From assembly GCA_965242695.1 (NCBI GenBank), contig CBDESU010000001.1, positions 832,001 through 896,000 of the forward strand: 64,000 bases of DNA. Reading direction: 5' to 3'. This DNA is from Cenarchaeum sp. (GTDB lineage Archaea > Thermoproteota > Nitrososphaeria > Nitrososphaerales > Nitrosopumilaceae). Below are positions 12,451-49,367 of this stretch, in pieces. Both the position numbers and the translations under genes were made by a program. Position 1 is the stretch's first letter, and each line of letters begins with the position of its first letter. The notes under the pieces were generated by a model. That model was not told the DNA's origin and did not search any database. It was given only the letters and a program-made list of their open reading frames with translations.

Positions 12451-13300
12451 ATGGGGGCGGAACCGGCCGATGCGGCCGTGCTGTGGGAGGCGGCCGCCGA
12501 TGCCATGTCGTGGACGGCGGCCATGCGCGCTCACGACTCGCTGGCGGAGTGCCGGAAGGGATGGGCGGCAAGGGTCGAGTTCGGCGATGCGATGAAGGGG
12601 GCCGCGGAGAAGTGCGGGCGGATCGTCGACGGACGGGGGATGGTGGACACCGCCTCGATCGGGCTGGCGGGGGATGCGATGAGGAGGGCCGCGGACCCGC
12701 TGGTGCGGGCGTCCAGGGCGTTTGCGCGGTCGTCCCGGCTCGACAAGGCGGCGGGGGCCGAGCTGGACCGGGCGTCCAGGGCGTACGGGCGGGCGGAGGA
12801 CCCGGAATACGCCGCGGCCGTGGCCGAGCGGGCCGCCCGCTCGCGCGCGCGACCATGCGCTGTCTTCGGCGGGGATGGCGAAGACCTCGCTGGACAGGGC
12901 CGAGTCGCTCGTGCGCGATGCGGCAAAGCTGGCGGCCGCCGCCGCGGCCAAGCAGCCGCCGCCCGGGCCCGCTCGGCGGTCGGACCTCGCCGAGATGTCG
13001 TCGCCGCAGGCCGACATGTGGGAGGGCGCAAAGCAGGATCGCCTAGAGTCTGTGGTAGCGCTCGGCAGGATGGACGAGGCCGTGCAGGCGACGGCGCGGA
13101 TACGGCAGCTTACGGCAAGGGCGGCCGAGATGTCGGCGGCGCGGGCGGCCGCGGCGGCGGCGCGGGGGCGGGGCAGTCCGGACGTGGAAAGGGCGGCCGC
13201 GGCGTGGAGGAGGGCCGTGGCAAAGGCGCACGGCGTGGAGGACAGATCGCGGCGGCGGGATGCGAATCGGGCCGCACAGGCAGGCCCGCCAGTCTTATAA
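12451..13300 (+). pseudogene. Ala-rich helical hypothetical protein, paralog 2 (frameshift near 12850)
   Basis: Same upstream AACGGCATAAAG motif; protein-like sequence switches frame at the CGCGCGCG run near 12842-12851. Confidence 0.55.
13285..13300 (+). promoter_or_regulatory. Zinc-finger family promoter cassette (CCGCCAG + TTATA box)
   Basis: CCCGCCAGTCTTATAA with TTATA 29 nt before ATG 13324; near-identical at 5223, 5618(-), 14074 and 46242; degenerate at 40431, 47191, 47531, 48375 and 49163. Confidence 0.75.
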
Positions 13301-13323
13301 CGCGCCGCGGGTTGCGCGGCGCG

Positions 13324-14022
13324 ATGTCGGGGCAGGCTGCCGCCTGCAGGATGTGCGGCGCGGGCTTTGCGCGGTACGGCCGCGGCGCCGGCGCCCTCTG
13401 CAAGCGGTGCGCGGCAAAGGCCGGCAGGGAGGCGGGCAGGGCGCTGCGCGCAAGCTGCAAGGCGTGCGGCAAGGGGTTTGCCGCGTCCACCCGCTCCGCC
13501 CGCTACTGCTCGGCCGAGTGCCGCGCAGACGGCGCGCGCCGCCGCAACCGCGAGCACCAGCGCAAGTACATGGCAGACCCGGCGAGGCGCGCCCTGGCCA
13601 TGGCGCGAATGAGGGTCGCCGCGGCGGCCCGCGCGACCCGCGAGAGGGGCGGGAGGCCGCCGCGGCGGCAGGCGCCTCCCCGCGTGGACCCGAACGCCGC
13701 GCCGTCCGTGTGCAGGCTGTGCGGGCGCGGCTTTGCGCAGTACGGCGGCAGCAACCGGCACGCCTACTGCAGGCGGTGCACGGCAAAGGCCGACAGGGAG
13801 ATGGGCAGGACGCTGCGCGCAAGCTGCAAGGCGTGCGGCAAGAAGTTCTCGACGGCCAGCCGCGCCGTGCGCTACTGCTCGGCCGAGTGCCGCGCCGAGG
13901 GCCTGCGGAGCAGCCGCCGGGGAAGCGACAGGAGGCTCAAGACCGATACGAAGAAGCGCGCCACGGCGGGGGCCCGAAAGGGGGCGCGCAGCGCCGCCCG
14001 CAGGGGCGGGGCGGGCCGGTGA
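13324..14022 (+). CDS. Double-module Cys-rich zinc-finger protein (family member)
   Basis: Two copies of CxxC..CxxC..CxxCGK..YCSxxC followed by an Arg-rich helix ending in D(P/T)xxRA; promoter-defined start. Confidence 0.85.
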   Translation: MSGQAAACRMCGAGFARYGRGAGALCKRCAAKAGREAGRALRASCKACGKGFAASTRSARYCSAECRADGARRRNREHQRKYMADPARRALAMARMRVAAAARATRERGGRPPRRQAPPRVDPNAAPSVCRLCGRGFAQYGGSNRHAYCRRCTAKADREMGRTLRASCKACGKKFSTASRAVRYCSAECRAEGLRSSRRGSDRRLKTDTKKRATAGARKGARSAARRGGAGR

Positions 14023-14112
14023 CGCGGGCGGCGCATGCGGGCCGCCCCCTCCGCCGGCGCGCGCACCGGCCGGCCCGCCAGCCTTATATCTGCATATTCG
14101 ATGCGCGGCGCG

Positions 14113-14811
14113 ATGGCCGGCCCGACCGCATGCCGTACGTGCGGGCGCGGCCTCGAGCGGCACGGCGGCCGCAGCCGCGCCTTCTGCAAGGAGTGCGCGG
14201 CAAGGGCCGACAGGGAGATCGCCAGGAAGCCGCGCGTCAAGTGCAAGGAGTGCGGCAAGAGGTTTACCGCTGCGAGCAGGATCGTCCGTTACTGCTCGAG
14301 GGGGTGCCGCGCCGAGTTCGCGCGCCGCTACAACCGCGAGTACCAGCGAAAGCTGCTGGCCGACCCGGAAAAGCGAGCCATAATCCTGGCGCGCACAAGG
14401 GCATCGGCCGCGGCGCGAAGGGCGCGAAAGAGGGGCGGGAGGCCGCCGCAGCAGCAGCCGCCGATGCGCGTGGACCCGAACGCCGAGCCGTCCGTGTGCA
14501 GGCTGTGCGGGCGCAGCTTTGCGCAGTACGGGCGCACCAACCGCCACGTCTACTGCAGGCAGTGCACCGCAAGGGCCGACAGGGAGATCGCCAGGAATCT
14601 GCGCGTAAGGTGCAAGGAGTGCGGCAAGGCGTTCACCACGACCAAGCGCTCGGTCCGCTACTGCTCGGACGAGTGCAGCGCCGAGGGCGTTCGGCGCAGC
14701 CGCCGCAGGAGCAACGCTAGGCGCACGACCGACCCAGAGAGGCACGCCGCCAGGGCGGCGTACATGAGGGCGCGCAGCGCCGCCCGCGGGGGCAGGGAAC
14801 CGGGAGGATGA
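14113..14811 (+). CDS. Double-module Cys-rich zinc-finger protein (family member)
   Basis: Same architecture, 232 aa; TTATA box 29 nt upstream. Confidence 0.85.
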   Translation: MAGPTACRTCGRGLERHGGRSRAFCKECAARADREIARKPRVKCKECGKRFTAASRIVRYCSRGCRAEFARRYNREYQRKLLADPEKRAIILARTRASAAARRARKRGGRPPQQQPPMRVDPNAEPSVCRLCGRSFAQYGRTNRHVYCRQCTARADREIARNLRVRCKECGKAFTTTKRSVRYCSDECSAEGVRRSRRRSNARRTTDPERHAARAAYMRARSAARGGREPGG

Positions 14812-15112
14812 CGCGGGCGGCGCCCGTGGCATGCACTTCGCCAGGCCGAGCCCCCCGGAGGGCCGGATGCCGCCCGCAGGCCGGCCGATATCAGGCTGCC
14901 GGCGGCGGCGCGTGCGGGAGCGGCCGGATGCCGCCGGCCGTGCCTGCGGGCTAGGCGGCCATTGAAAACTCGCGGCCGCACGCCCGGCAGCGCAGGGCCG
15001 GCCCCTGCCCGGCCCCCGGCGCGGCGTTTCCGCCGTCGGTGCGCGCAAACCTGCGCCCACCGCACGAGGGGCATACGGGGCACGCCCTGCCGGCCCCGGC
15101 CATGCCACCGCC

Positions 15113-15652: not shown

Positions 15653-15680
15653 GCGGCCGCCGCGGCGGGCGGCGATTTAA

Positions 15681-16658: not shown

Positions 16659-17259
16659 GCGGCGCTGTGCGCGCGCGGCAATTTAACGGTGATCCGCCGG
16701 CCTGGGCGTGCATTCGTCCATGTGACGCCGTCCACTTTACGGCGCCGGGCGCCGCGGAAGGTGCTCTTGGAGGGCCGTGGGGGTGAGGGCTGTGCAGATG
16801 TGCCGAAAGCGGCGGAAGGCCGCGCCCGGCGTGCAGTGCGGCCAGTACGGGGGCGGGCGGGGCCGAAGCGGCGCCACCGCCTCGACTCTGCGCCTATTCC
16901 CCTTCGGCTCAGTCTTCGCACAACTTTGTCCCTCTGCCGCCCAGGTTTTCTCATAGGCGCGCCCGGCGCGCCGGCCTGGCGGGCCAGCCGGAGGGTGATC
17001 CTTGTCGACGGCCCGCTCCGTACCCCGTGCCCCCTACCCCCTACCCTCATGGCCGGCGTGGCTGCATTGGGAGGAGTGGGGGGAGGGAGAGTTCTGCGCC
17101 CGTCCACAGGGCGGTTTTACTGGCGGGGGGGGGGGGGGGGGGGCGCGGTACCCTCATATACCCTAGATCGGGCGCGCCGTCCTGAAAATGCACAAGAGAA
17201 ATGCGCCGATGGCCGGCCGACTCGCCGCGGTGCAGATTGCGGGGGGGGGGGGGTGAGCA

Positions 17260-20200
17260 GTGACCGCCACAGGCGGGCATGCGCCCTGCCGCTTCAACGC
17301 AATGGCGATTGTGGCCGTGGCCGTACTGGGAGCTGCCGTGGCCATGGCGGTGCCGGACCACATCGCAGGCGAGGCGTTCGCGCAGTCGGCCGACGGCGCG
17401 CCGGAGTGCCCGTCGGCTGCGGCCGGCGACGAGTGCGAGTACCACGTCACGGAGGCGCTCGCAATACGGGACATACTGCCGGAAATAGTGCGGATCGATC
17501 CTGACACGGGGTATGTATACGTCTCTACTAGGCCCAAGCAGGGCGCAATGGATCTCAACTATTCGTACCTCAACGTCTACAACAGCTCGGCCAACGGATA
17601 CCTTCCGATCGCAGAGTTCAAGTTCGACACTGGAATAAACACCCGCATAGAGGGCTTTGAGATCAACAACCGGACAAACGAGCTCCATGTGGTTCACCTG
17701 TGGGGCATGCATGATGCGTCCGAGGGGTGGACTGGAGAAGGGTGGGATGTGAGGGGCAAGGCCAACCTGACGACGATCGACCTCGACACGCACCAGATGA
17801 CAAAGACGATCCGGCTCGGCTATACGGAGAGCCCTGCCGTAACCAGCGCGCACAATTCGTTCTGGTACCAGACCGATCGGTTCTTCATGCACGACATTGC
17901 GCTCGACACGGTGCGGGATCTGGCGTACATTGGCGCCGAGCGCGCGCCCATCCTGGTAGTGGACACGAACACGACCACGCTCCTGCCCTCGAGGGTGGAT
18001 CGGGGCGGCACATCAGACCCTGGCGACGGGTGGAACGCATTCGCAGAGGGCACAATCTCCATGTCCATGGCGGTCGATGAGGACTCTGGAATCGTATATG
18101 CCGGCGTCGTCGTCGGCGACAAGCTGGACGAAACCGGAGGCACATGGGGGATCGCGGCGCTCAACTTTACGGACCCGAGCGGGAATCCGACGACAAACTA
18201 CACCAGCATGCACTTTTTGGGGCTGCTGTCAAACCCGCCCCCCAATACTGGAAAGTGCTTCAACAAACCTGGAACGCCTCACAACGAAACCAACTACTAC
18301 ACCTACCCTTGTTACGAATTTGTGCGCGTCGAGGCGTTGCATTTTGACGGGGGCAACAACAAGCTGTTCGCGCTATACGAAAACCACACCGTATGGGCGG
18401 TCGAACTAGACGAAAGCGGACGCCCCCAGAGCATGGAGGAGTTGGACGTGCGGGCAGGCGATCCCCGCCATGGCCACAATCCGATTCGCGACATCGCCCT
18501 CGACTCCCAGAGGGGCCTGCTGTACACCTCGCTGTACGACTATACCGACCCGCGCGTGGTCGTAATGGACTCTGCGACCCATGCCCGCGTGGGCGTCGCC
18601 TCGACGACGAGCCAGACCGCCGAAATGGGGATCAACCCTGCCAACGGGGCCGTCTACGTGCTACCTGATTGGGCGCTCGGGGCATATGTCATCGAGGGCG
18701 AGCCAAAGTCCGACCTACAGAGGAGGATAGACGACGCGTCCGACGGCGACACGATCGTCGTCGAGCCGGGCATCTACGACGACACGGTTCTCGACATTTA
18801 CAAGCCGCTGACCCTGACGACGGCATCCGGACAGCCCGGCGCCGCAAAGTTCACGGGGTACTCGCGCATCGAGGTAGAGGCAGACGACGTGACCGTCAGG
18901 GGCATCTCGTTTGAGAATACCGACTGCATGCCCGGCTTTGGCGGGTCGCTCATAGAGATAAGGACGCACCACGACGTGACTCGAAACAGAGTCACGATCG
19001 AAAACAACGCGTTCCGCGACACGTGCCACGCGGCAATCCAAAAGGAGGGCCGCGGCAACCTGGTGGACATCAACATACGGGACAACACGTTCATCAACAT
19101 CGGACTAAAGGTCCCGCCGGGCTGGACCGAGCCGCTCGACACGGGGGGCGAGAACGAGTTCCAGATCATGCACGGCGCGATCGGGCTCGCGCACCACCCG
19201 AACCAGAACACTGTCGGCGGCGAGATCTCGGGCAACTTCATCAACGGCACAAGCGCGGCCGGCATACGGGTGTTCAACGCGCACGACATGGCGATTACCG
19301 ACAACTACATTGCAAACACGCCGGCTAGCGCCATCGGGCTGGCGCACAACCCGCAGGACGTCCAGGTTCTCCGCAACACCATCGTCAACGCCAACAGCGA
19401 ACCCGACCTGGACTACCTTGCCGGCATCGAGGGCAGCGGCGATGCGGACTACTGGCGCTTTTTCGGAAAACCCGCGATACTGGACGGCATCGACCCCACG
19501 CCGCAGGACCACCCGACGTACGGCGACGGACTGCCGGCGCCGGACGCCGCAATCAACGTGTGGTCCGACGGCCAGAACATCAGGGTAGAGGAAAACACCA
19601 TACGAGGCAGCGACGGGGCCTTTACCGTGTGCACCGGCGTGTGCGCGTTCGAGAGCGACGGGCTCGTGCGCGGGGGGAACAGAAACATACCGCTCGACAC
19701 AAACATTGACGGCGCCAACATCGTGTTCCGAAGCAACGTCGTATACGCGCACAACGGTACGGACAACAACGGCGTGCTGATCCGGAGCAATGTAACGCAG
19801 GGAACGCTAGATGCGACGGACAACAGCTTCCCCGGGTATTCGGCCGCATCGGACGTTCCCGTCCTGGGGGCCATGGACCTGGGGTCTAGCGTATTGGCGC
19901 AGGCTGTTCCGGACGGCGAGGACGCGCAGTGCCCGTCGTCTGCGGACGCGGACAGCTGCACGTACCACGCGACGGGGTCGTTTACGGCGGGCGACGTCTC
20001 GCCGGCCACCGTGAGGATCGACCACGAGCGCGGGATCGCCTACGTGGCGAGCAAGATCAACGCGGGGGCATCGAACCCCGAAGAGGTCGTCCTGCTCGCA
20101 TACGAGATCGACGCCGCCCGCGGGTACCCGCTCGTCAAGGCGTTCGATCCTGTGGGCACGCACTATCCGCGCGTCCCGGCCATGGAGATCGACGTAGAGA

Positions 20201-23200
20201 ACCGCGCCCTCTACGTCGTCCACTCGTACAACCACTCGTACAGGATAGGCGAGGCGTACCTGGGCAGCCACGACGCAGATGCCCACCTTGCAAAGATCGA
20301 CCTGGACACCATGGAGATCGAGTGGTCGACGCCGATGCTCAACCACACCAACCGGAACGGCGATGTCAACACCCGCTACGACCTGTTCGACATCGCGCTG
20401 GATCCGGCAAACGAGGCGGCGTTCATAATGACAGAGGGGCACCGCCCTGACAACGAGAACGACAGGAATGCAAGCCCCGTCCTGGTCGTAAGCACGAACA
20501 ACGGGACGGTCCACCCCGCCATCTTCCATGACGAGAGGCACCCGTACAACTACACGCAGGATCCGGCCGCCGTCCTGGCGGTCGCCAACCCGAGCGCGAT
20601 GGCAGCCAACCTGACGGACAGCCACACCGCGTACGTCGTCGGGCGCATCGGCACTTTTGCCGACCCCCACTGGGGGATAGCGACGGTCTCCTTCGAGGGC
20701 CCGAACGGCGAGGTGCATCCCGACTACGAGGTGCACGACTTTGTCACCCTGATCGACAACCCCGCCAGCCACCACAACTACCACACGTACCGCAACGGGC
20801 ACGAGTCGTACAACTCCGTCCTGGCCAGGGATGTGATCCTGGACGACGAGAACAACCTCCTGTTCGTCCTGATGCGCAACCAGACCATGTTCAAGTACGA
20901 CCTGAGCACTAATACGACGCTGATCGGGGGCGACACGATAGGGCTGCCGCGCAACCCCGAGACGGTGGCCAACCTGCCCGGCACCATCACCGGCATCGGC
21001 CTGGATGCAAAGAACGGCATGCTGTACGCGGTAAGCAACGACTGGCAGAGGCCGTCCGTGTACGCGATCCGCACCAGCGACATGGCAGTAGTGGGCGAGT
21101 CGTCCCTGAACGACCAGATGATCGCAATTTCAGTCGACCAGGGCAACGGCACCGTGTACGCCTCGCCCTCTTGGACGCCGTCCGTGTACGTGATCGACCC
21201 GCTGCCGCGCACCGGCCTGCAGAACCTGATAGACGCCGCGGCGCCTGGATCCGTCGTGACAATACCCGACGGGACGTACGACGACACGGTCCTGGTGATC
21301 GACAAGCCGCTGACCCTCACGTCGACGACGGGCGAGGCGGGGCCCGCCATGTTCACGGGACACTCCCGCATACAGGTGCAGTCGGACGACGTCGCGATAC
21401 GGGGCCTGTCGTTCGAGGATACGGACTGCATGCCGGGCCTGTCGTACAACCATATCGGCATACACAACAAGGCGGCTCGCTCTGGCATCACAATAGAGGA
21501 CAACCGCTTTGCCGACACGTGCCACGCCGCCGTGCAGACAAAGGGCGCCAACACGCTAGAGGACGTAAAGGTGCGCTTCAACGAGCTCGTGAATGTGGGC
21601 ACAAAGATCGCGCCGGGCAAGGCCGAGCCGCTCAACACGGGCGGCGAGGACGAGTGGCTGTACACGCACGGCGGGATCGGACTGTCGTACCACCCGGGCC
21701 AGGGCGAGGTGAGGAACGCCGAAATCTCCTACAACGACATTCGGGGGACGAGCTCGGCCGGCATCCGCGTGTTCAACCCCGACGACGTCCGGATCGTCGG
21801 AAACACCATACGGGACACGCCAGAGGCCGGCATTGCGCTCGCGCACAACAGAAACTACGACGCGTCCGACGTGCTGATCAGGGCAAACACGCTGACCGAC
21901 ACGAACACCGAGCCGGACATGGACTACCTCGACGGGGTGGAGGGCAGCGGCGAGCTCTCGTACTACACGGCGGTCGGGCTCCTCGGCAGGGCCTCGCTCA
22001 CGGGACCGGGACAGTCGCCGCACTACGAAAAGCCGACGCCGAGCGCGGCCATAAAGGTGTGGGCCAACCTGGAGAACGTGACCGTAACGGACAACACGAT
22101 CAGGGGCAGCGGCGGCGCGTTCGTCGCATGCGCCGGAACGTGCGCCACCGAGAGCGACGGCGTGATCCACACCGGACCCGACAACCGCGACCGGTGGAAG
22201 GTCCGCAACATACTGCTCCCCGCGTACGACGACAGCGGCTTTGGGAGCTACAGCATCAACGTGACCGCAAACAACTTTGCGTTCAACTGGAACGCGATAT
22301 CGGGCGACAACGGCCGGAACGGCGCCGACCTGATCGCCAACAACGCGACCGGCGTCCTTGACGCGACAAACAACTACTATCCGGGGATGATCGCACCGGG
22401 ACAGATACGCAGCCCCGACACGGTCGACTATTCCACGACGGCGCGGGCCGTCGCCAGCGTCTCGCCGGCATCCGCCGGCGTGCAGGGAATCGGCGATGCG
22501 CTTGAAATTGCGGTCGCATTCAACAAGGACACCGTAGTGGACACGCTGCACGGAAAGCCGTCGCTCCTCCTGTCCACGGGACCAGAGACCGGCACGGGCA
22601 CCGCCGAGTACAGGGGCGCCTCGGCCGATGCCCTCAGCTTTGCGTACACGGTAAGGGAGGGCGACCTGCTCGGCTCGGACATGCTGGTCCGCATGGACCT
22701 CGACGGGGCCCTGATCGACGCCGAGCCGAACCCCGATGCCGTGCTGGAGCTGCCCGCCATAAGCCGCGTTCCGACAATCGACAGTATGCGCCCGTACGTC
22801 GTGAATGTCACGACGACGACGCAGGCCGGATCGTACTATCCGGGCAGCGCGATCGAGATTGTGGCGGCGTTCAGCGAGGATGTGGCCGTGTCCGGCGCAC
22901 CAACCCTCCCCCTTGCGACCGACCTGCCTGGCTCGGCCGCGTTGTACTCGGGCGGGAACGGCACGAGCCTCATCGCATTCAAGTACACGGTGCAGGGCGG
23001 CGACACGGCCGACCCGCTAACGAACGCGGCCGCGGATATAATCCTCGCCGGCGGCGCCTCGATCAGGGACATGGCCGGCAACGATGCGGCGCCGGGGCTG
23101 CCCGGCGCGGGGACGGGCGCATCGCTTGCCGAGACGAGCGGCGGCCAAATCGTCATACTCGACAGGGATACGACAGAGACGGCAGCCGAGGCGGTATTCT

Positions 23201-26200
23201 CGGCAAGGAATACCATCCGCATCGACTATACGGCGCCGCTCGGCCCACCGAGCGACTACACGGGCGACGTGTACGGCGCGATCGAGCTCTCCGGCGGGAC
23301 GACCGCATCGCCGACTGACGTGGACGGCCTGGGGACGGCAACGCACACGGTGCGGTTTGGCGGGCCCGGCGTCTCGCGCAGCGACACGGGCACGATCGCG
23401 CTAAACACAGACCTGGAGGGGCGCAGCGCCGGCGGCACGCCGCAGACGTTTACGGACGATACGATACCGGTGAGGGCCGGCACGTTCGCCGTAACGGTGG
23501 CGCCAACGGGCGATGCGCCCGTCGTGGTCATCGAGCGGGACGGCTTTGTCCGCCAGGTCAACGTCGTTGACGGCGGAGACACGGTGCGCCCGGCCGTCAA
23601 CGTCTCGTCGCTCGCCGAGGTACCACTCGAGGAGAACGGGACGAACACGGTGAGGCTTCCCGGCACGGATACAGTCGCCATAGTCGCATCGTTTGCCGAG
23701 GTCCACTTCCCGCCAAACGTCACGGCCACGATGGTTCCCGCAGACGGCCTGCTAGAGCTGTACGTCTCGCCCGACAGGCCGACCGTTCAGGAGGTCGCCG
23801 AGGCGCTCGGCGATGATACCCCCTCGGGCCTAGAGGTGCAGCAGGTCGTAGAGGTCGGCGACAGCGAGGCCAGGATCGTATTCGACCTGCCGGTCCGCAT
23901 CGTGCTCGACGGGCAGGCCGGCGGCAGCGCGTTCTACGTGAACACATCGGACGGGGCAATCGTGCCGATTATGACCGTATGCGAGGCCGACGACACGGCC
24001 GCAGTGCACGCGCAGCTTGGCGGGTCGGGCGAGTGCCAGCGCGACTCTGGCGGCGACAAGGTCATACACACGTACCATCTGACAAAGTTTGGGACGGCCC
24101 GTGCCGCCTCTGCCCTCGAGGACATGGTCTCGGCGGCCCCGCCGGGCGGCACCGTCCAGGTGCAGCCGGGCGAGTACAGCGCCGCCGTCCTGATAGTCGA
24201 CAAGCCGCTGACGATAGAGGCGGCCGATCCGGACGACCGGCCGGTCTTTACCGGCTACTCGCACATCATAGTCGAGCCGGCCGCCGCGGGCCCCATAACA
24301 ATCCGCAACCTCGCGTTCATGAACACGACGCACACGTCGGGAGCGGGCGGCCTGGCCTCGATAACCGTCCTGTCCAAGACCGGCTCAGCCGCCGGCGCCG
24401 CGCCGGTCACAATAGAGGGCAACACGTTCCGCGACACGTGCGACAGCGGCATCCGCGCGGCGGCCGACGCCGGCGCCCCGCCGATAGCGGATCTGACCAT
24501 ATCCGGCAACAGGTTCTACGACATCGGGTCAAACTCGGCCGGCTGCATGTCCCCGTCGGCCCCAGACAGGGCCGACGCCATAGTGGCCGGGAGGCACGGG
24601 CCATTCACGGCCGGCACGACCGAGCTGGCAAACGCCACAATACGCGACAACTACATCTTCGGGACGACATACACGGGGATGAGGGTGGCAGGCGCCGACG
24701 GCCTCGTCATAGAGGGCAACCACATCGAGGGCGTGCCCGACGACGGCGTACGGATACTCCCGTCTAGGAACGTCGACGTCCGCAGCAACACCATAATCGG
24801 CGCCAACGGCGCGCCGCACGCGCCGGCGGACGGCGCGCCGGCGCACGAAGGCCTGGCCGGAGCGGCGATCGAGGTGTGGTCCGGCTCTGACGATGTGGTC
24901 GTCGCGCTCAACCGCATATCGGGCAGCGCCGGCGCGCTTGCCGTGTGCGCCGGCACGTGCGATCCGGGGGCGGACGCGGCCGACGGGACGGGAGGCGATC
25001 CGGTCCCGGTCGGCAGGGCGCAGCTCGGCTCGCCCGACGGCGCAAACGACGTGCGGTTCAGCCACAATACAATCGACGCGACAAACACGGCGCCGCTCGT
25101 GGCAAACAGCGCGGGCGGCACGCTCGCCGCCCGCAGCAACTACTATCCGGGACACGCGGCATCCGTGGCGGCCGGCACCGGCATGGCGGCAGCGTCCGGC
25201 GCGAGCGTAGAGTACGCGCCGGCGATCGACGACGGCGGCCCCGTCAGGGTCGGCGTCATTGTGGCCGACGCGCCGGGATCGCCCGTGCGCTCGATAGACG
25301 CGGCAGTGGCGGCCGGATTCGCAGCCGGGTCGTCCGCATACAACGAGGGACAGGCGCGCATGGGCGGGCTGGTCGGGATCGAGCCCGTTCCGTACTCGGT
25401 CGCATCGCCCGACATGGCCGACTCTGCAGCGCACGCGGCGGCACTCGAAGCGCTGCGCACGGGCGCAAACGACGACGACCGGATGCGCCCCGTCCTGGAA
25501 AACTCGATAGCCCGGGCGATCGCGCTGTACGACGGGAACGCGACGGGCGGCCTTGCGGCGATAAGCGCCATGGAGGCCGAGTACGGCCACTATCCGTTCG
25601 CAACATCCCGGAACGGGACCCTGGTCGCCCACGGCGCAAACCCCTCGCTCGTCGGGCGGGCCGACGTCGTGCTCGGCATTGCGGGCGGCGCCGATGGCCT
25701 GCGCGCGCTATACGACTTTGGCGACGGGACAGCATCGACGGGAATCGAGGGGTACCCCAACGCCAGTTGGAAGTGGTGGACGTACGAGTTTGCAAACCCG
25801 GCGGCCGGAGGCGAGATGCAGTCCAAGCGCTCGATCATCGTCCTGCACAACGGCCCTGACGGCGAGGCCGGCACGGCCGACGACCTGGTGTTCGGGGCCG
25901 GCCACTACCCGCCGGGCGCGCCGTCGCACCTGCTCGTGGCCGCCGGCGATGCGGCGGCCGCGGCCGACCCGGCGGGCGGCTCTGGTATAGTCGTCTCGCC
26001 GACCTCGACGGCCACGGCGCCGACGCGGCTCGCCTCCGCGGCCGACTCGCTCTTCCGCCTCGCCCCGCCGGACGGCACGGCCGCCGGCGTGCTTGCGGGC
26101 CTGCTCGGCGCCGACACGTCAAGGGTCGTCGTCCTAAACGACAGCGCATCGCTGCAGAGCATGAGCATGGCAGCCGCCCTTGCATCCCCGTCGTCGGACG

Positions 26201-32941: not shown

Positions 32942-34255
32942 CTACCAGCTGCTCGCGTACCTCTTCTGCTCGGCGCCGAGCCTGTCGATGGACACGCCCA
33001 TGGCGGCGAGCGCATCGCGCGCGACCTGCACGTCGATCTCGGCCGGCACCCTGTGTATTCCGTTGTCCATCGATGCGTGGTTCTTTAGGATGTGCAGTAT
33101 GGACAGTATCTGGTTCGAGAACGACTGGGCCATGACCTCGGGCGGGTGGCCCTCGGCGGCGACCAGGTTGGCCAGGCGGCCCCTGCCGATGAGGTACACG
33201 CGCCGGCCGCCGGGCAGCCTGCACTCGTCGAGCCCCTCGCGCACCTTTCTCACCTTCGAGCCGCCGCCGAGGAGGTACTTTCCGTCGATCTCTACGTCAA
33301 AGTGGCCGACGTTGCCGAGGACGGCGCCGTCCTTCATGCGGTCGATGTGCTCTTTTGTGATGATCCCCGTCATCCCCGTGCACGTAATGAACACGTCGCC
33401 GAGCCGGGCTGCCCTCGACATGGGCATGACGTCGTACCCGTCCATGTGGGCCTCTAGGGCGCGCACGGGGTCGACCTCTGTCACGATCACGCGCGAGCCC
33501 ATCCCGCGGCAGCGCGCGGCCACGCCCCTGCCGACCCAGCCGTATCCGGCCACGACGACCCTCTTTGAGGCCATGAGGAGGTTCATCGAGCGCAGCAGGC
33601 CGTCGACCGTGCTCTGGCCCGTCCCGTACCTGTTGTCGAACATTAGCTTTGTATGCGCGTCGTTTACGACGATGATCGGGTAGCGGAGCTGCCCCTTTGC
33701 CGCCACGGCGCGTATGCGGTTGACGCCGGCCGTAGTCTCCTCGGTCGCGCCCAGTATCTCGAGCCCCGAGAACCTCTTGTCAAAGTGCGCCTTTATGTTC
33801 ATGTCGGCCCCGTCGTCGGTCAGGATCGACGGGCCGTGGCCTAGCACCTGCTCTATGCACCAGTCGTACTCCCTGGCCGTCTGGTCGTTCCACGCGTACG
33901 CGTGGATGCCGCTCGATGCAAGGAACGCCGCGATGTCGTCCTGTGTGGTGAGCGGGTTGCCGGGGCAGGCCGCCACGGTCGCCCCGAGCTCCTTTGCGCC
34001 CATGAGCAGGACCGACGTCTCCTTTGTGATGTGCAGGCAGAAGCCGAGCGTGATGCCCTTGAGCGGCTGCGAGGGCCTGAGGCGGGAGAGCGTGTTCTCT
34101 AGTATGCTCATGTGCGAGCGGGCCCACTCGTACGACAGGCGCCCCTGCCCGGCGAGCTTGATGTCCTTGACCTTGTAGCCCTTGGCGGGGCCTCTGCCCT
34201 TGCCGGCGCGTCCCGCCGCCAGCGCCCTGCCGCCCTTGCGCCTAGTAGCCGCCAC
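32942..34255 (-). CDS. ahcY: Adenosylhomocysteinase
   Basis: CLHITKET, GATEETTAG, FDNRYGTGQS, GYGWVGRG, GHFDVEI, GRLANL..EGHP; start placed at GTG 34255 by TATA spacing. Confidence 0.97.
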   Translation of the reverse strand: MAATRRKGGRALAAGRAGKGRGPAKGYKVKDIKLAGQGRLSYEWARSHMSILENTLSRLRPSQPLKGITLGFCLHITKETSVLLMGAKELGATVAACPGNPLTTQDDIAAFLASSGIHAYAWNDQTAREYDWCIEQVLGHGPSILTDDGADMNIKAHFDKRFSGLEILGATEETTAGVNRIRAVAAKGQLRYPIIVVNDAHTKLMFDNRYGTGQSTVDGLLRSMNLLMASKRVVVAGYGWVGRGVAARCRGMGSRVIVTEVDPVRALEAHMDGYDVMPMSRAARLGDVFITCTGMTGIITKEHIDRMKDGAVLGNVGHFDVEIDGKYLLGGGSKVRKVREGLDECRLPGGRRVYLIGRGRLANLVAAEGHPPEVMAQSFSNQILSILHILKNHASMDNGIHRVPAEIDVQVARDALAAMGVSIDRLGAEQKRYASSW

Positions 34256-34496
34256 GGGCGGCGCGGCCGGGCGCTTCAATTAAAACCCTTATGACCGCAC
34301 ACTTGGCGAAAGATCGCACCCTGCTACTCCTCTGACACTCATAGTCAAGCGACCCGTTGTAAACAGGGCCACCGTGCAAGTCTCTGGCAAGGGCTAGGTC
34401 TGTAGATCGAGTGGTGATGATGTACGCTACGCGGGCGCCGACCACGGCTTCATCTTGCCCGAAAGTTATATCACCCTGCTCCGAGCGGCCGCGGTA

Positions 34497-37432: not shown

Positions 37433-37485
37433 TGACCGCATTGATTGTCTCGCCTTTACCACAGAAGTTTACGGAATGCCGCTAC

Positions 37486-38388
37486 TCATACGTGCACTGC
37501 AAACACGTACGGCGTCCCCCCTCCCTCCGACTCGATCGTCCACCGCGTGGGCAGCTCTAGCACGCCAAGCACGTCTAGGTCGAACTTGTCGAGCAGGGGG
37601 CCCCATCCCCACCGGTTCTCGGCGCCCCCTATGCCGCCGGACGCCTCCTCTCCGACACCTGCAAGGACCAGGAGCGGCCCGGCGCCCCCGTCCCGCGCGC
37701 CGCCCTGGGCCGCGCAGGCGACGGCATCGGCGAGCAGCTCGCCTACCTGCGGTAGGGCGCCGACAAAGAGTGCGGCTGCGCCGCCTTCTTCCCGTACCGG
37801 CCCCGCATAGTCGATGCCGAACGCATCCTCGCCCGAGCCGGATGCACCCATTTCGACGCCCGTCCTCTTTGATATGGCCAGCTGCGCGGCGGCGAGCCCG
37901 TCGTCGATCTCGACTGATCGCACGCGCATGCCGGCCGCACCGCAGCAGTACGCGATGCGGCCGTCGCCGGATCCGACGTCGACGGCAGCGCGCGCGCCGA
38001 GGGCTAGCGCCGCAGATGCGAGCGCATATGCCGAGAGCATCCACGTCGGGTAGAACGGCGCGGCGCTCGCATCGTGCTTTAGGCTGTCGAGCCAGTGGCC
38101 CGTCGCGTCGCCCTCGCATAGGGTGCACCGCACTCCGCCTATGGCCTCGTCCGACAGCCTCGCATAGACGGGGCTTGCCCGCGCGAACGCGCCGAGCGCC
38201 GCCGCGCCAGCCGCATCGACTCCGATCGACGGCTCGGCCCCCGACGGTATGGCCTCGTACAGGTGGCTGTTGCCCCTGTACGATCGACTCGTCTCGCCGG
38301 CGATCCGCAGAATCGCATCGGCCGCGCGCCGCCGCCGCCCAAGCTCGGCAGCTGCCGGCCCGGCCGAGAGCATGCCCATCCACAGCAC
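37486..38388 (-). CDS. Conserved hypothetical class I SAM-methyltransferase-like protein
   Basis: VDVGSGDGRIAY motif I, SVEID; lies directly downstream of fen. Confidence 0.8.
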   Translation of the reverse strand: MLWMGMLSAGPAAAELGRRRRAADAILRIAGETSRSYRGNSHLYEAIPSGAEPSIGVDAAGAAALGAFARASPVYARLSDEAIGGVRCTLCEGDATGHWLDSLKHDASAAPFYPTWMLSAYALASAALALGARAAVDVGSGDGRIAYCCGAAGMRVRSVEIDDGLAAAQLAISKRTGVEMGASGSGEDAFGIDYAGPVREEGGAAALFVGALPQVGELLADAVACAAQGGARDGGAGPLLVLAGVGEEASGGIGGAENRWGWGPLLDKFDLDVLGVLELPTRWTIESEGGGTPYVFAVHV

Positions 38389-38395
38389 CCTGCCG

Positions 38396-40174: not shown

Positions 40175-40460
40175 CGCCGCATTGAGAAATTGGTGCGACG
40201 GCAGGATGCACAAGGCGCTGAAGGGACTGTGGGGGGAAGCGCACCCGCAGTCCGTCGACCCGACTCTGGCCTCGCGGGGGCGGCATGCACTCGAGAACTT
40301 CCATCATTCGGGCGCCCATATCTGGCACGCCGCCATTGATATCCGCTGAACGCGGTCGGACGGGCGCCGCCGCGCCCTGGGCGCGCCATGTGCAGCCGCA
40401 CGCGCGCGCACTTGGCGGCGCCCCTTCAAACTTATAGCGCGGAATTTGGAGCGCGGCGCA

Positions 40461-41147
40461 ATGGCGCAGACCGCCGACTGCCGCCTGTGCGGCCGCAGCT
40501 TTGCGCGGCACGGCCGCCATGCCTACTGCAGGCGATGCGCCGCCAAGGCCGACAGGGCGATCGCCCGGGATCTGCGCGTGGACTGCAAGGAGTGCGGCAA
40601 GCCGTTCCAGACGGACAACCGGAGCGTCCGCTACTGCTCGGATGCATGCCGCGCCGATGCCAAGCGGCGGAGCGCCCGTGAGCATGGGCGCAGGCAGTTG
40701 ATGGATCCAAGGAGGCGAGCCATTGCAGCGGCGCGCGTCAGGGCGATCGTGGCCCGGCGCAGGGTCGGGGACGCAGGCGGGTCGCCCAAGCGGCGGCGGA
40801 AGCAGGCAGATGGCGGCACTGCCATGTCTAGGACGCTGACCTGCAAGCTGTGCGGCCGCAGCTTTGAGCTGCGCGGCATGGGCATCCGATCGTACTGCAA
40901 GCGGTGCGTCGCCATGGCGGACAGGGAGGCTGCCAGGAAGCCGCGCAGGCAGTGCAAGGAGTGCGGCAAGAAGTTTGACTCGAAGGCGCATTTTGTCCTC
41001 TACTGCTCGGACGAGTGCCGCGCCAAGGTCGCGCGTCGCCGCGAGCGCAGGAGCAACCGCCGCCGCTCGGCCGACCCTGAAAAGAGCGCCATTGCGGCGG
41101 CGCGAAGCAGGGCCTACCGCGGCGGCCGGAAGGCGCGGCGCGCATAG
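40461..41147 (+). CDS. Double-module Cys-rich zinc-finger protein (family member)
   Basis: Two modules; CTTATA box 29 nt upstream; linker contains PKRRRK. Confidence 0.85.
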   Translation: MAQTADCRLCGRSFARHGRHAYCRRCAAKADRAIARDLRVDCKECGKPFQTDNRSVRYCSDACRADAKRRSAREHGRRQLMDPRRRAIAAARVRAIVARRRVGDAGGSPKRRRKQADGGTAMSRTLTCKLCGRSFELRGMGIRSYCKRCVAMADREAARKPRRQCKECGKKFDSKAHFVLYCSDECRAKVARRRERRSNRRRSADPEKSAIAAARSRAYRGGRKARRA

Positions 41148-41827: not shown

Positions 41828-41861
41828 CCTCTCACCACCCTTGCGATCATGTTGGGGTTTT

Positions 41862-42313
41862 TCAAGGCCTGGTTGAGCGGAAGACTCCATTCACCGTCTG
41901 TGCGGTATACCTTCGTCCGCTTGATACCTGGGTCAGGCTCCCAGACACCCTCGTACGGGGTAAGTTCATGACGACCCTTAGGCCCATGGCCCGGAGCGCA
42001 GAAGCCCTGTTTGCTAGGCTTGACATGAAGGCTCCCATCTTTTTTAACTCGGCAATGACCAGGTCCTGTTCGCCGGCGACGATCTTGAGCGACTCGATCT
42101 CCTTGGCCTGCGCCTTGGCCGAATCGCTCCTGCCGCTGCCTCCCATGCCGGCAATCTCCCTCTTGCCGGCGTCCATGAGCCCCTTGCTCCAGTTGTCGAA
42201 CGCGGTCGGCGAGACGCCGTGCTTGCGGCATATCCCTGCCACGCCGATGTTCGTCGAGAGGTACCCGACCACATGTCTACCCGCTCCCTGGCGGTCCACC
42301 GCCTGTGCGTCAT
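41862..42313 (-). mobile_element. IS3-family OrfA-like remnant (HTH + coiled coil)
   Basis: RRWTARE..VAGICRKHGVSPTAFDNW..EIESLK..ELKK; A6G slippery-type motif near 42039-42045 (-); frameshift near 42275; no integrase core. Confidence 0.7.
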
Positions 42314-42379
42314 TTTTTCGCCTCCCCGGCGCCCCCATGGCTCTCAACCCCTTCCATTCCGATCGTTCTCACTCTACGG

Positions 42380-42700
42380 GGGCCCTCGACACTCGGGCGA
42401 AGAACTGTCGATCCTTGGCGACGTATCCGATGCCCTTGACAACGTGTGCGCGTCCCTGCACATGGAGATGCGCAGGCGTCGAGCGCCAGCTACTTGTGGT
42501 GCGCCATCCGCGAGCGGATCGACAGAGCCGAGTCGCTGAGGGCTGAAATTCCTGCAAGCCAGCGCCATGCGGCGCTGGAATGCTTGGCCGTTTGCGTGCA
42601 GGGCGCTATCGCCAGCCTTAAAAATAGCCCTGTGCGCCTGCGCAGCATGGCGGACATGCACGGCATGAGCGCGTTCGAGTTGGAGGGCGGCTGGCGATGA
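42380..42700 (+). pseudogene. Degenerate first copy of the two-gene unit at 42697-43343
   Basis: SILGDVSDAL..VCASL and YL.CAIRE.IDRA.SL.AEIP..QRHA.LE are both repeated; this copy is 5'-truncated and its second start codon is lost. Confidence 0.7.
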
Positions 42701-44977: not shown

Positions 44978-45001
44978 TACCGCATGCGGCCGCGCACCGC
45001 C

Positions 45002-46106: not shown

Positions 46107-46278
46107 ATCCTGTCGAGTATGAGCGACTCTAGCCTTGACACTTGGACAGTCGACATCGGCGGCGCGCCGAGGCGCCCCCTGTTAAGGGTTGCTGGGCTGG
46201 ATGCACCGCGAATCGCACCCCCTCCGCCCCCACCCCTCCCACCGCCAGTCTTATAGCGGACGGCCTGGTGCGCGGCGC

Positions 46279-47058
46279 ATGGTCGTGCTGATCGCCTGCA
46301 AGCTGTGCGGCCGCAACTTCAAGCTGCACGGCGGCGGCCACGTCTCCTACTGCAACAGGTGCATGGAGAGGGCCGGCGGGAAGCTCCACAGGGTACAGAG
46401 CCTGAAGTGCGCTGTGTGCGGCAAGGGATTTTCCGCGTCCACGTCCCTCGCCCGCTACTGCTCGGACGGGTGCCGCGCCGAGGGCAGGCGCCGCTCCTAC
46501 CGCGAGTGCTATCGCAGGCGCATGGCCGACCCCGAGAAGCGCGCCCTGGTGCGGGCGCGCGGGAGGGTGGCGGCCGCCGCACTTGCGGCCCGGAAGAGGG
46601 GCGGGCGGGGGCGGGGGCGGCCGCAAGCCGGCAGGGGCGCAGCAAGCCCGCCGCGCAGCGCGGAGGGGATCGCGGTCGCCTGCGACCTGTGCGGCCGCAA
46701 CTTTGTGCCGCGCGGCCGCGCCAGCCCTCTGTACTGCGGGCGATGCACGGCCAGGTCCGAGAGGGAGCTTGCCCGGGTGCTGCGCGTAAAGTGCAAGGAG
46801 TGCGGCAGGACGTTTTCCACGAAGGACCGCATCGTCCGCTACTGCTCGGACGAGTGCAGCGCCGCGGGCGTGCGGCGCGGCCGCCTCGAGAGCGTCCGCA
46901 GGCGCATGCCCGACCCCCAGAGGCGCGCCGTCGCGGCGGCGCGCACGAGGGCGTGGAACGCGGCCCAGAAGGACAAGGCGGGAAGGCGCCGCGGGCGGCC
47001 GCGCGCGCAGCGCCCCGCCGGATCGCCTCCCGACAAGCCGGCGCGCGGCCGGCGCTGA
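46279..47058 (+). CDS. Double-module Cys-rich zinc-finger protein (family member)
   Basis: Two modules; promoter CCGCCAGTCTTATAG at 46242-46256. Confidence 0.85.
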   Translation: MVVLIACKLCGRNFKLHGGGHVSYCNRCMERAGGKLHRVQSLKCAVCGKGFSASTSLARYCSDGCRAEGRRRSYRECYRRRMADPEKRALVRARGRVAAAALAARKRGGRGRGRPQAGRGAASPPRSAEGIAVACDLCGRNFVPRGRASPLYCGRCTARSERELARVLRVKCKECGRTFSTKDRIVRYCSDECSAAGVRRGRLESVRRRMPDPQRRAVAAARTRAWNAAQKDKAGRRRGRPRAQRPAGSPPDKPARGRR

Positions 47059-47227
47059 AAGGCGCGCCGAAGGATCGGCGCGCGAGGGGGCGCGGGCCGC
47101 GCCCCGCCGTGCCCGGAAACGGGCGGCGCGCCAGGGGCAGTGGCGGCTGCGGCGGCGGCCGTACTCCATGCGCGCCTCGCGCGGGGGACTCGCCAGTCCT
47201 ATGACGCAGAATTCGATGCGCGGCGCG

Positions 47228-47483
47228 TTGGCCATGCCGGCCATGTGCAGGGCGTGCGGGCGCAGCCTTGACGCCTAACTGCAGGGAGTGCGGCAAAAAG
47301 TTCCCTGCGTCCGGCCGCCGCGCCCGCTGCTGCCCAAAGGGGTGCCGCGCCGCCGCCAGGAGGCGCAAGAGCCTGGAGTCTGCCCACAGGAGCATGGAGG
47401 ATCCAGAGAAGCACGCAGCGATGCTGGCGCGAGCAGGGGCGTGGAATGCCGCCCACAGGAACGAGGGGGGGGGGGGCGGGTGA
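47228..47483 (+). pseudogene. Zinc-finger family pseudogene (single module, internal deletion)
   Basis: Degenerate promoter at 47191; TTG in place of ATG; CRACGRSL, stop, then CRECGKKF..DPEK in another frame; G12 at the 3' end. Confidence 0.75.
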
Positions 47484-47569
47484 CCGGGCGGCGCCGGCGG
47501 CATCGGCGCCCGCGCCCGCCTCATGGCCAGGCCGGCCAATATTATACCCCGCAATCCGCGCGCGGCGCG

Positions 47570-48286
47570 ATGGGCAGGTCGACCGCGTGCGGGCTGTGCG
47601 GCCGCTCGTTTGCGCCGTACGGGGGCGTCAGCCACCACGCCTACTGCGAACGGTGCACGGCCAAGGCCGACAGGGAGGTCGCCGGCGTGCAGCGCATCGA
47701 GTGCAGGGAGTGCGGCAAAAAGTTTCCCTCTAGTACGCGCTCCGTCAGGTACTGCTCGGATGCGTGCCGCGCCTCTAGCAGGCGCCGCCTCAACGCCGAG
47801 GCCCAGCGCAGGTACATGGCCGACCCCGAGAAGCGCGCCATGTCGCTGGCCCGGACAAGGACCTCCTCGGCCGCGCGCAAGGCCAGGGCGCAGGGAAAAA
47901 AGCGGCCGCCCGCCGGGCGCAGCCCCAGCACCGCCGGGCGCAGCCCGCGCGGCGCAAAAAGGCCGGCGCCGTCAACGTGCCGGCTGTGCGGGCGCACGTT
48001 CGCGCAGTACGGCTACCACCGAACCAACTACTGCAAGCGGTGCAGGGCCAGGATCGACCGGAAGATCAGCACCGTACTGGACGTGGGCTGCAGGGAGTGC
48101 GGCAAGAGGTTTTCCACGAAAAACCCCCTGGCAAAGTACTGCTCCGTGGAATGCCGCAACGCGGCCAGGAGGCACAAGAGCCGCGGGGTATCGCGCAGGA
48201 TCACGGCCAGCCCCGAAGAGTACGCCAGAATGCTGGCGCGGCATAGGGCGTGGGATGCCGCCAACAGGAACAAGGGGGGCAGGTGA
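47570..48286 (+). CDS. Double-module Cys-rich zinc-finger protein (family member)
   Basis: Two modules; TTATA box 28 nt upstream. Confidence 0.85.
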   Translation: MGRSTACGLCGRSFAPYGGVSHHAYCERCTAKADREVAGVQRIECRECGKKFPSSTRSVRYCSDACRASSRRRLNAEAQRRYMADPEKRAMSLARTRTSSAARKARAQGKKRPPAGRSPSTAGRSPRGAKRPAPSTCRLCGRTFAQYGYHRTNYCKRCRARIDRKISTVLDVGCRECGKRFSTKNPLAKYCSVECRNAARRHKSRGVSRRITASPEEYARMLARHRAWDAANRNKGGR

Positions 48287-48412
48287 CAGTGCCGCGGCGG
48301 CGCCCGCGAGGATCGCCGGATCGGCGCCCCCTCCCCGCGCGCTTCTTCTGGCGGGGCAGGGAGGGGGGCGGGGAGCCTGCCGATATTGTGCCCCCTGCTC
48401 GGGCGCGGCGCG

Positions 48413-49129
48413 ATGGCCAGGCCGGCCGCGTGCCGGCTGTGCGGGCGCGGCTTTGAGCGGCGCGAGCGCCACGGCCGCCGCGTCTATTGCGAGCAGTGCA
48501 CGGCCAGGGCCGACAAGGCGATCGCCGGGAAGCTGCACGTCAAGTGCAAGGAATGCGGCAAGGCGCTTGCCACGACCAGCCACCGCGTCCGGTACTGCTC
48601 AAAGGCGTGCAGCGCCGAGTACGCTCGGCACTACAACCGCGAATACCAGCGAAAGGCCCTGGCCGATCCGGCGAAGCGCGCCATAATCCTGGCGCGCGTG
48701 AGGGCATCGGCAGCGGCCCGCGCGGCCCGCAAGAGGGGCGGGAGGCCGCTGCAGCGCCAGGCTCCTATGCGCGTGGACCCGGACGCCGAGCCGTCGACGT
48801 GCAGGCTGTGCGGGCGCAGCTTTGCGCAGTACGGGAACACCAACCGCCACGCCTACTGTAGGCAGTGCACGGCCAGGGCCAACAAGGCGATCACCGAGAA
48901 GCTGCACGTCAAGTGCAAGGAATGCGGCAAGGAGTTCACCACGACCAACCGCTCCGCCCGCTACTGCTCGGACGAGTGCCGCACCGATGGCACGCGGCGC
49001 AGCCGCCGCGAGTGCCGCCTCAGGCGCATGGCCGATCCGGAGAAGCGCGCCACCGCGGCGGCGTACGCGCGGGCGCAGAGCGCCGCCCGCAAGGTGGAGA
49101 AGCAGGGCGATGCGGGCCGCGCCGCCTGA
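48413..49129 (+). CDS. Double-module Cys-rich zinc-finger protein (family member)
   Basis: Two modules; central part closely matches 14113-14811. Confidence 0.85.
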   Translation: MARPAACRLCGRGFERRERHGRRVYCEQCTARADKAIAGKLHVKCKECGKALATTSHRVRYCSKACSAEYARHYNREYQRKALADPAKRAIILARVRASAAARAARKRGGRPLQRQAPMRVDPDAEPSTCRLCGRSFAQYGNTNRHAYCRQCTARANKAITEKLHVKCKECGKEFTTTNRSARYCSDECRTDGTRRSRRECRLRRMADPEKRATAAAYARAQSAARKVEKQGDAGRAA

Positions 49130-49201
49130 TCGCCACCCTTGCCCGCGCATCCGCCGCGTCCGCCCGCCGGTCTCATACCCGCATATCTGATGCGCGGTGC
49201 G

Positions 49202-49367
49202 ACGGCCGGGCGGATCGCATGCGGGATGCGCGGGCGCGGCCTTGAGCGGCACGGCACCGGCGGTGGCCGCCGCGTCTACAAGGAGCGCACCGCTAGGGCC
49301 GGCAAGGCGATCGCCCGGACACCATTCGCGCAGTGCAGGGAGCGCGGCGGCAAGTTTTCGGCGCCCC
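49202..49367 (+). pseudogene. Zinc-finger family pseudogene truncated at the tandem array
   Basis: ACG at the ATG position; several Cys codons mutated (CGMRGR, YKERTA, CRERGGKF); ends where the 34-bp repeat begins. Confidence 0.75.

Follow-up and report, generated by a model that had tools for sequence, protein, structure and literature searches.

What are the small, cysteine-rich and extremely basic proteins whose genes recur along a 64-kb stretch of a Cenarchaeum sp. genome, and why are there so many of them? The stretch, here called the window, comprises positions 832001-896000 of contig C1 of genome G000 (3.89 Mb, two contigs, 68% GC). A preliminary description of its sequence saw a repertoire of co-regulated, nucleic-acid-binding zinc-finger proteins of diversified specificity, analogous to the tandem zinc-finger (ZNF) gene arrays of eukaryotes. 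The reading toward which we lean, with limited assurance, is that of a lineage-specific family of nuclease-free DNA-binding proteins that would be kin to finger arms of the phage type and may descend from them. The cysteine scaffold of these proteins is under selection and the remainder is moderately relaxed, with the first loop indistinguishable from other non-ligand segments.

The open-reading-frame (ORF) listing and an alignment give six intact zinc-finger genes in the window, all on the + strand and encoding 228-259 amino acids (aa). With four broken copies they occupy four loci, including a five-unit array at 46.2-49.4 kb, as first described. Profile matches are given with their expectation values (E).

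5227..5300, + strand: promoter-plus-stub copy, an intact cassette followed by about 12 codons, ATG at 5262.
5277..5640, - strand: one-module copy, a cassette and one complete module, ATG at 5594; E 3.3e-24 over query residues 1-116.
13283..13323, + strand: promoter cassette of copy 1 (CCGCCAGTCTTATA, about 24 nucleotides (nt), ATG); TTATA begins at 13295, 29 nt 5' of the ATG.
13324..14022, + strand: intact copy 1, 232 aa, two modules, 16 cysteines; E 4e-101.
14072..14112, + strand: promoter cassette of copy 2.
14113..14811, + strand: intact copy 2, 232 aa from 14113 or 236 aa from 14101; E 1.8e-109; the protein that was folded.
40420..40460, + strand: promoter cassette of copy 3, variant AAACTTATA.
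40461..41147, + strand: intact copy 3, 228 aa; the sole window copy above the Pfam Ecl1 cut-off (34.4 vs 28.3 bits).
46239..46278, + strand: promoter cassette of copy 4.
46279..47058, + strand: intact copy 4, 259 aa, unit one of the tandem array.
~47049..47483, + strand: pseudogene remnant of module 2; E 5.2e-10; one internal TGA; RYCS changed to RCCP.
47530..47569, + strand: promoter cassette of copy 5 (CCAATATTATA).
47570..48286, + strand: intact copy 5, 238 aa; the sole copy of this genome that groups with the clade of a congener.
48374..48412, + strand: degenerate promoter cassette of copy 6 (GATATTGTG).
48413..49129, + strand: intact copy 6, 238 aa; E 3.6e-107.
49164..49367, + strand: dead copy, TATA changed to CTCATA, ATG to ACG at 49202, cysteines lost; E 1.5e-6; ended by a 34-bp tandem repeat.

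The fragments at 5227-5300(+) and 5277-5640(-) are arranged head-to-head, and a read-through version of the 47049-47483 remnant, P0011, comes from another assembly. For copy 2 the leaderless start at 14113 is favoured over the in-frame ATG at 14101 because of the spacing of its TATA box. The three copies that the frame filter let through have a third-position GC of 0.89-0.91; this value, together with cysteine codons that change only synonymously, marks genuine genes as opposed to high-GC phantom frames.

All 16 cysteines are invariant across the six window proteins, so that the two-module cysteine pattern of the preliminary description holds; across 90 aligned sequences, metagenomic homologs among them, 12 cysteines are invariant and the other four at least 90% conserved. 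Each protein is an internal duplication of a module of about 105 aa, in which a C4 zinc ribbon, a short helix and a CxxCG...YCSxxC finger are followed by a helical hairpin rich in arginine, whose ADPEKRA turn is conserved. AlphaFold2 models the module as a two-strand ribbon, a helix, a second beta-hairpin finger and a 40-residue helical hairpin, with a predicted local distance difference test score of 85.8 for the whole protein (the 14113 copy) and 87.6 for a single module. The 16 invariant cysteines imply four zinc ions per protein, and zinc binding is accordingly a prediction from the ligand pattern. The proteins have isoelectric points of 10.4-11.8, net charges of +31 to +59 and 18-25% arginine. 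Pfam, NCBIfam and PADLOC scans found no catalytic domain in the window proteins, which bears out the impression that no nuclease or other catalytic domain is attached. Pfam lists no HNH family (HNH, HNH_3, HNH_5) for any of the six, NCBIfam holds nothing relevant, and the PADLOC-DB models of anti-phage defence yielded no families for the three proteins tested, at E up to 0.01.

The finger itself, judged from profile comparisons, is not new. It falls in the CxxCG...YCSxxC class of the DUF2116 (annotated as a "probable treble clef"), Ecl1 and NinG N-terminal models, which is widespread in phages and prokaryotes. Among PHROGs profiles the best match for all three proteins tested is phrog_1271, "HNH endonuclease" (E 3.6e-15 to 4.5e-19, two stretches each). 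Module residues 3-98 or 7-96 align to positions 176-262 of its 361 positions in two of the three proteins, and the matching is limited to positions 133-262, that is, to a shared non-catalytic finger region. The Pfam models compared do not take in the window proteins as a whole. One of the six passes the Ecl1 cut-off (PF12855), five score 20.1-27.9 bits or are unlisted, and the match covers positions 8 to about 50 of 170. DUF2116 (PF09889, cut-off 26.8 bits) is unlisted for all six at E up to 1, NinG/Rap (PF05766, cut-off 25.4 bits) reaches 21.1 bits at best over positions ~3-61 of 193, and the NinG N-terminus, DUF2256, MYND and DZR models all stay below cut-off. Nor are these C2H2 fingers (PF00096): the ligands are all cysteines, Pfam scores are below cut-off and the Foldseek template modelling (TM) score is at most 0.1. 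Sequence matches in the Protein Data Bank (PDB) to ZFP568 and PRDM9 (E 5e-9 to 1e-5) reflect local CxxCGKxF knuckles, with per-stretch E above 2, and were not taken as kinship.

A profile search of 1.84 billion representative proteins returned 3836 relatives at E<=1e-3, 274 of them at 1e-10 and 32 at 1e-30. Of the best 150, the 13 closest were dropped as members of the family and the remaining 137 were scanned against Pfam, giving matches to Ecl1 (54), NinG (41), DUF2116 (21), HNH (11), HNH_5 (8), PLATZ (7), HNH_3 (3) and HNH_4 (1); the best DUF2116 match among these distant relatives has E 1.4e-20. They are multi-finger proteins with up to 28 fingers. In P0155, P0203 and P0219 seven to nine fingers come after an HNH_3 domain at the N-terminus, P0156 has NUMOD4, and a viral-contig protein joins WhiB to three fingers. 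Finger repeats are present on 12 IMG/VR contigs, one of which adjoins an HNH gene and a terminase-like gene (the terminase judged by eye), and the nearest ESM Atlas clusters are mostly viral, a lead only, as the recognition value is 1937 against a guide value of 2300. Since the same finger class occurs in phage and prokaryote arrays and makes up the repeated non-catalytic part of certain HNH homing endonucleases, the genes of the archaeon resemble such finger arms in free-standing form. The metagenomic protein P0169 (1662 aa) places 28 fingers after a 300-residue N-terminus; similarity of that N-terminus to a TFIIB zinc ribbon (E 0.0027) lies below cut-off and was not used as evidence. No paper on the wider multi-finger class (up to 28 fingers, some joined to HNH) was found in the part of the literature covered, and the class deserves a description of its own.

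Nucleic-acid binding by the family is plausible, given the net charge and the fusion of relatives to HNH, NUMOD4 and WhiB, and these fusion partners argue for DNA as the ligand. Two other ligands were weighed. As chaperone-like or ribosome-associated basic proteins, the family would bind RNA instead. FCS fingers are reported to bind RNA, the proteins are extremely basic, and the N-terminal ribbon aligns weakly to chains of ribosome entries (6zu5_LGG, Z 3.9; 9e6q_Ac, Z 3.6; 9qf4_BV). We nevertheless consider RNA binding quite unlikely: these structural matches are all weak, the recurrent fusion partners are DNA enzymes or factors, and 15 fast-turnover paralogs would be unusual for a core RNA function.

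Alternatively, the fingers could serve protein-protein contacts in the manner of YacG, MYND or FCS fingers, making the proteins inhibitors or adaptors, for example of host or viral DNA enzymes. YacG is a protein-binding inhibitor of gyrase, and in its gyrase-bound form it heads the structural matches of the complete model (4tma_I, Z 4.2, root-mean-square deviation (rmsd) 5.0 over 45 residues; a second value is 3.4), to which weak Pfam MYND matches may be added. Both Z values lie below the tool's noise limit of 5, however, and the YacG sequence match has E 0.59. The charge and the Arg-rich helices fit polyanion binding better, and the partners to which relatives are fused act on DNA, so that protein contacts as the main role seem very unlikely. 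Two further aligned structures, the FCS finger of L3MBTL2 (2w0t, finger 2, rmsd 2.7 A over 35 columns, 26% identity, E 1.5) and 1lv3 (rmsd 4.1 A over 34 columns), likewise score in the noise range; for finger 2, YacG and 2w0t are the sole local resemblances that make sense.

Several points weigh against a DNA-binding family of phage-type descent. We infer the DNA ligand, zinc binding, expression and cellular role of the proteins, and the direction of a virus-to-archaeon transfer is conjectural. The window proteins lie mostly under Pfam cut-offs. The modelled module as a whole has no counterpart among solved structures: Foldseek against the PDB gave nothing at E<=1e-3 with either the complete model or one module by itself, a result that does not make the fold new, and a wide VIA-align search gave no chain at Z>=5 for either, the best Z being 4.1-4.2. 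The nearest finger look-alikes, YacG and the FCS finger of L3MBTL2, are not sequence-specific readers of DNA, the latter being a binder of RNA or, non-specifically, of nucleic acid. A tblastn search of GenBank phages gave no match, so the phage link is carried by profiles and metagenomic proteins. The selection estimates given below come from a home-made pairwise model that ignores gene conversion.

The genes are numerous in the genome and narrowly distributed beyond it. A genome-wide profile search with the six proteins found 22 places, 15 full-length and seven partial, and 13 of the 15 full-length copies lie within C1:808-881 kb; a strict pattern counts 31 modules, and all 15 full-length copies are open frames. 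The congener G004 (3.7 Mb) has 15 matches, with at least 12 full-length copies and two arrays of about five genes each. In three further congeners, whose genomes of 1.8, 2.0 and 3.2 Mb are 96-99% complete, there is no match, so that strong matches are confined to two of the five genomes of the genus and to the same two (G000 and G004) of 401 sampled genomes of the family Nitrosopumilaceae, among which G057 adds a single 39-residue match (E 4.3e-6). The result is a sharp genomic contrast inside one genus, with two large genomes that have the genes and three others that do not, and this restriction could be relevant to how sponge archaea expand their genomes and adapt to their hosts. A library of 5.8 billion proteins contains 146 relatives of near-equal length at E<=1e-3; for the best 120 of these the source is ena or lgn, or none is shown. 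A pattern scan of GTDB contigs gave one weak bacterial locus and otherwise nothing, and a search for longer, fused forms of the family found two, without an extra Pfam domain.

The congener also holds a zinc-finger gene in an insertion of about 7 kb together with an N6_Mtase/Eco57I-like methylase (L034 4166-8520; C2 ~2213-2217.5 kb). That insertion sits between genes syntenic with G000 C1:960-962 kb, and there is no zinc-finger match of G000 in C1:958-967 kb.

The 5' cassette that the preliminary description had seen ahead of the copies, which it took to be co-regulated, turns out to be specific to the family. The motif CCA[GA][CT]CTTATA occurs 15 times in the 3.89-Mb genome and precedes zinc-finger genes in 13 cases, which makes it a feature of the family and not a general promoter of the genome. 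A TTATA-like box lies 45-50 nt 5' of the first cysteine codon in 26 of 27 full-length copies from the two species, at exactly 47 nt in 20 of the 26. The consensus is CGCCCGCCAGTCTTATA, in which GCCA and TTATA are 96-100% conserved across the two species, despite a synonymous divergence of about 1.3 between them. In most copies TTATA starts 29-30 nt before the ATG, which agrees with the spacing expected of a leaderless promoter with B recognition element (BRE) and TATA box, where the centre of the TATA box precedes the start codon or transcription start by about 26-27 nt. In archaeal promoters such TATA-to-ATG spacing is the geometry of leaderless transcripts. Leaderless transcription of the genes is predicted from this arrangement. 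The copy at C1:811013-811726 is box-less; it has an open two-module frame with no ATG, GTG or TTG upstream of the first cysteine, and may be freshly silenced.

The proposed birth-and-death turnover is supported by tandem arrays, pseudogene fragments, relic promoters, species clusters and a recent array duplication in the congener. A tree of 27 rows, from which the one-module copy C1:836770, the C2:1054171 fragment and the 115-aa L031_10750 were excluded, splits the copies of the two species with support 96/93. One copy of G000, that at 47570 in the window, is sister to the congener's clade; at least two lineages thus predate the species split and the expansions are species-specific, with gene conversion as an alternative explanation of the species-wise clustering. 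The array in the congener is recently duplicated and rearranged, with pairwise synonymous divergence (dS) of 0.12-0.36. Relic cassettes lie downstream of two copies, and a TAG-interrupted cluster of fragments is found on C2. Dispersed copies are homologous from about 45 nt upstream of the gene to about 35 nt downstream of it, bounds that make the duplicated unit the gene and its promoter alone.

Selection was estimated pairwise with a home-made maximum-likelihood codon model (GY94-type, F3x4). Pairwise NG86 ratios of non-synonymous to synonymous rates (omega) of 1-2.2 for many paralog pairs were rejected as an artefact of the ~90% third-position GC, because the same bias appears in controls: for 12 ortholog pairs between G000 and G004, NG86 gives omega 0.28 and maximum likelihood 0.11, the latter with twice the dS. 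By maximum likelihood, young pairs in G004 have omega 0.45-0.71 and pairs in G000 0.18-0.32, and in older pairs omega is significantly below 1 (twice the log-likelihood difference 22-56). Over 13 independent sister pairs, the partitions have the following omega values.

16 cysteines: 0.00, with 0/208 codon pairs showing an amino-acid change at dS 0.55.
Loop 2: 0.28.
Basic helices: 0.37.
Loop 1: 0.40.
Linker and termini: 0.42.
Helix A: 0.51.
Whole gene: 0.34, against 0.11 in the 12 control orthologs.

The expected purifying selection on the cysteine scaffold is therefore plain in the cysteine row. It is hard to reconcile with the idea that the genes are functionless or selfish relics of mobile elements, drifting neutrally in a variable island. 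That idea has in its favour a setting among insertion sequence (IS) elements, restriction-modification genes and other expanded families, the many fragments, and the elevated omega of the youngest pairs. Yet all 15 full-length copies are open, the promoter is conserved across species, older pairs are significantly constrained, and the gene is accompanied by neither terminal repeats nor a transposase; on that last ground a mobile unit was rejected, and neutral relics are extremely improbable.

The same estimates bear on the proposal that the paralogs form a repertoire of sequence-specific transcription factors with diversified DNA specificities, like eukaryotic ZNF arrays. The many paralogs on a fixed scaffold, sister copies that differ at ~35-45% of their amino acids, loops with insertions and deletions, relatives fused to WhiB, and an omega above that of housekeeping genes would all suit such a repertoire. 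It would, however, lead one to expect diversification at a recognition surface, and the divergence is even. No region has omega above 1, loop 1 is like the linker and helix A, and no target motifs are known. A SLAC-like count over 230 sites found 70 purifying sites and one positive site (p <0.05), the latter below chance expectation, with low power for positive selection because the neutral expectation is already 87% non-synonymous. The first loop, called hypervariable in the preliminary description, is indeed variable in both length and sequence, yet by entropy, region omega or site test it does not exceed other non-cysteine segments in this, and diversification focused on the loop is not borne out. 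Diversified specificity among the paralogs is pure conjecture, and we regard the transcription-factor repertoire as unlikely.

For the nuclease-free DNA-binding family, which remains the reading we favour, a working model can be outlined. The two fingers and basic helices would bind double-stranded DNA, probably with modest sequence specificity, and a leaderless mRNA would be transcribed from the conserved BRE/TATA box of each gene. Unequal tandem or segmental duplication would add new copies, and truncation or decay of the promoter would remove others, the zinc ligands being strictly kept and the remaining sequence only moderately constrained. A bolder variant, which we think very doubtful, envisages an arms race like that between KRAB-ZNF proteins and transposons. 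Here the targeting arms of phage homing endonucleases would have been domesticated into a rapidly changing DNA-binding repertoire that identifies invading mobile DNA, such as IS elements and viruses, and silences or marks it in the two symbiont genomes, swollen to 3.7-3.9 Mb. The BRE/TATA cassette would switch on the full set at once, perhaps via a paralog of transcription factor B (TFB).

The genes reside in a variable region with restriction-modification, IS, methylase, ATPase and repeat-protein genes, among which housekeeping genes such as those for methionyl-tRNA synthetase and S-adenosylhomocysteine hydrolase are scattered. Neighbours encode a D12 methylase, an AAA_14/DUF4143 ATPase, TPR proteins, an IS66 transposase and giant repeat proteins. 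The stretch at 40.3-49.5 kb is represented in sequencing runs labelled "sponge metagenome", where 37-72% of sampled words are present in runs of two studies, and contigs match it at 90-100% identity in four runs from four studies. Contigs from the array allowed no conclusion on structural variants in the population, since the joint sides of 21-57 nt are indistinguishable from other paralogs. Three other features of the window were recorded.

7040-8263 and 9564-11381: the two halves of an MmeI-type restriction-modification gene, the first with the N-terminal and helicase-spacer parts and the second with the methyltransferase, target recognition domain (TRD) and C-terminal parts.
8514-9653, on the strand opposite to the gene halves around it: DDE_3 (IS630-like) transposase gene.
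49606-51174: AAA_14/DUF4143 ATPase gene of lower GC.

GC falls to 59-62% in the patch at 7040-11381 that holds the first two of these. Upstream of the ATPase gene, at 49368-49658, lies a perfect 34-bp tandem repeat (8.6 copies, 100% identity) that occurs once in the genome; it ends with a TATA-like box and for that reason looks like an amplified promoter region.

A second expanded family consists of Ala/Trp-rich helical proteins of ~270 aa without a Pfam match. A profile search gave about 40 matches, which amount to at least 35 copies, a good part of them in tandem arrays, with locations at 11526-13252 in the window and at C1:782-827 kb and C1:1037-1049 kb in G000, and the family is also found in the congener (L030 15735 and 16852). 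Two frameshifted copies lie directly upstream of the first zinc-finger gene (11526-13252). Members flank several zinc-finger genes, but most of the copies are far away, and the family was rejected as a specific partner. Three giant ORFs at 6-5144, 17257-27249 and 55995-63998 (>1700, 3331 and >2660 aa) are internally repetitive, have numerous paralogs in other parts of the genome, and look surface- or adhesin-like by eye. A short transposase-like ORF, of helix-turn-helix type by eye, is found at 41862-42368 (-) and 42142-42448; its summed contig depth in run X1 is 453 against ~90-110 at the flanks, a four- to fivefold excess that suggests a multi-copy IS. At 34000-38000 GC is 53-56% against 68% for the genome and no ORF passes the third-position-GC filter, and this segment may be foreign DNA.

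If the proteins do bind DNA, they would constitute a rare large prokaryotic repertoire of tandemly evolving zinc-finger genes, an architecture usually thought of as eukaryotic, and an instance of a phage DNA-targeting module freed of its nuclease and amplified by a host. No account of the family or of an archaeal equivalent was found in the literature covered, and the main texts of PMC7848895 and PMC6697440 contain no occurrence of "zinc" or "finger", with the reservation that the supplementary ortholog tables of sponge-archaeon papers might list it. To that extent the claim that there is no described archaeal equivalent stands; the finger itself has relatives in a class widespread among phages and prokaryotes.

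Four known systems invite comparison. The eukaryotic tandem C2H2 (KRAB-type) ZNF arrays share tandem gene duplication, lineage-specific expansion and the CxxCGKxF knuckle, and as regards gene-family dynamics the analogy first drawn is sound. It fails for fold and ligand type and, on present evidence, for diversifying selection: the archaeal ligands are Cys4 instead of Cys2His2, the structures do not match (TM <=0.1), no single long protein carries the fingers as an array, and no positive selection was detected at contact-like positions. YacG and the FCS/MYM fingers are locally alike in being a small C4 finger with a helix, but all scores are within noise (E above 0.1, Z below 5) and there is no membership at the sequence level. 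The DUF2116, Ecl1 and NinG families have the CxxCG...(Y/F)CSxxC finger in common with the archaeal proteins, and the finger alone (positions 8-37 of 170 in Ecl1, ~5-58 of 193 in NinG). Phage HNH endonucleases with finger repeats share the CxxCG-x(6-18)-C[ST]xxC finger followed by a basic helix. Compared with them, the archaeal proteins are without HNH or NUMOD and are built from precisely two composite modules, to each of which a C4 ribbon is added at the N-terminus, and their genes are chromosomal and amplified to about 15 copies.

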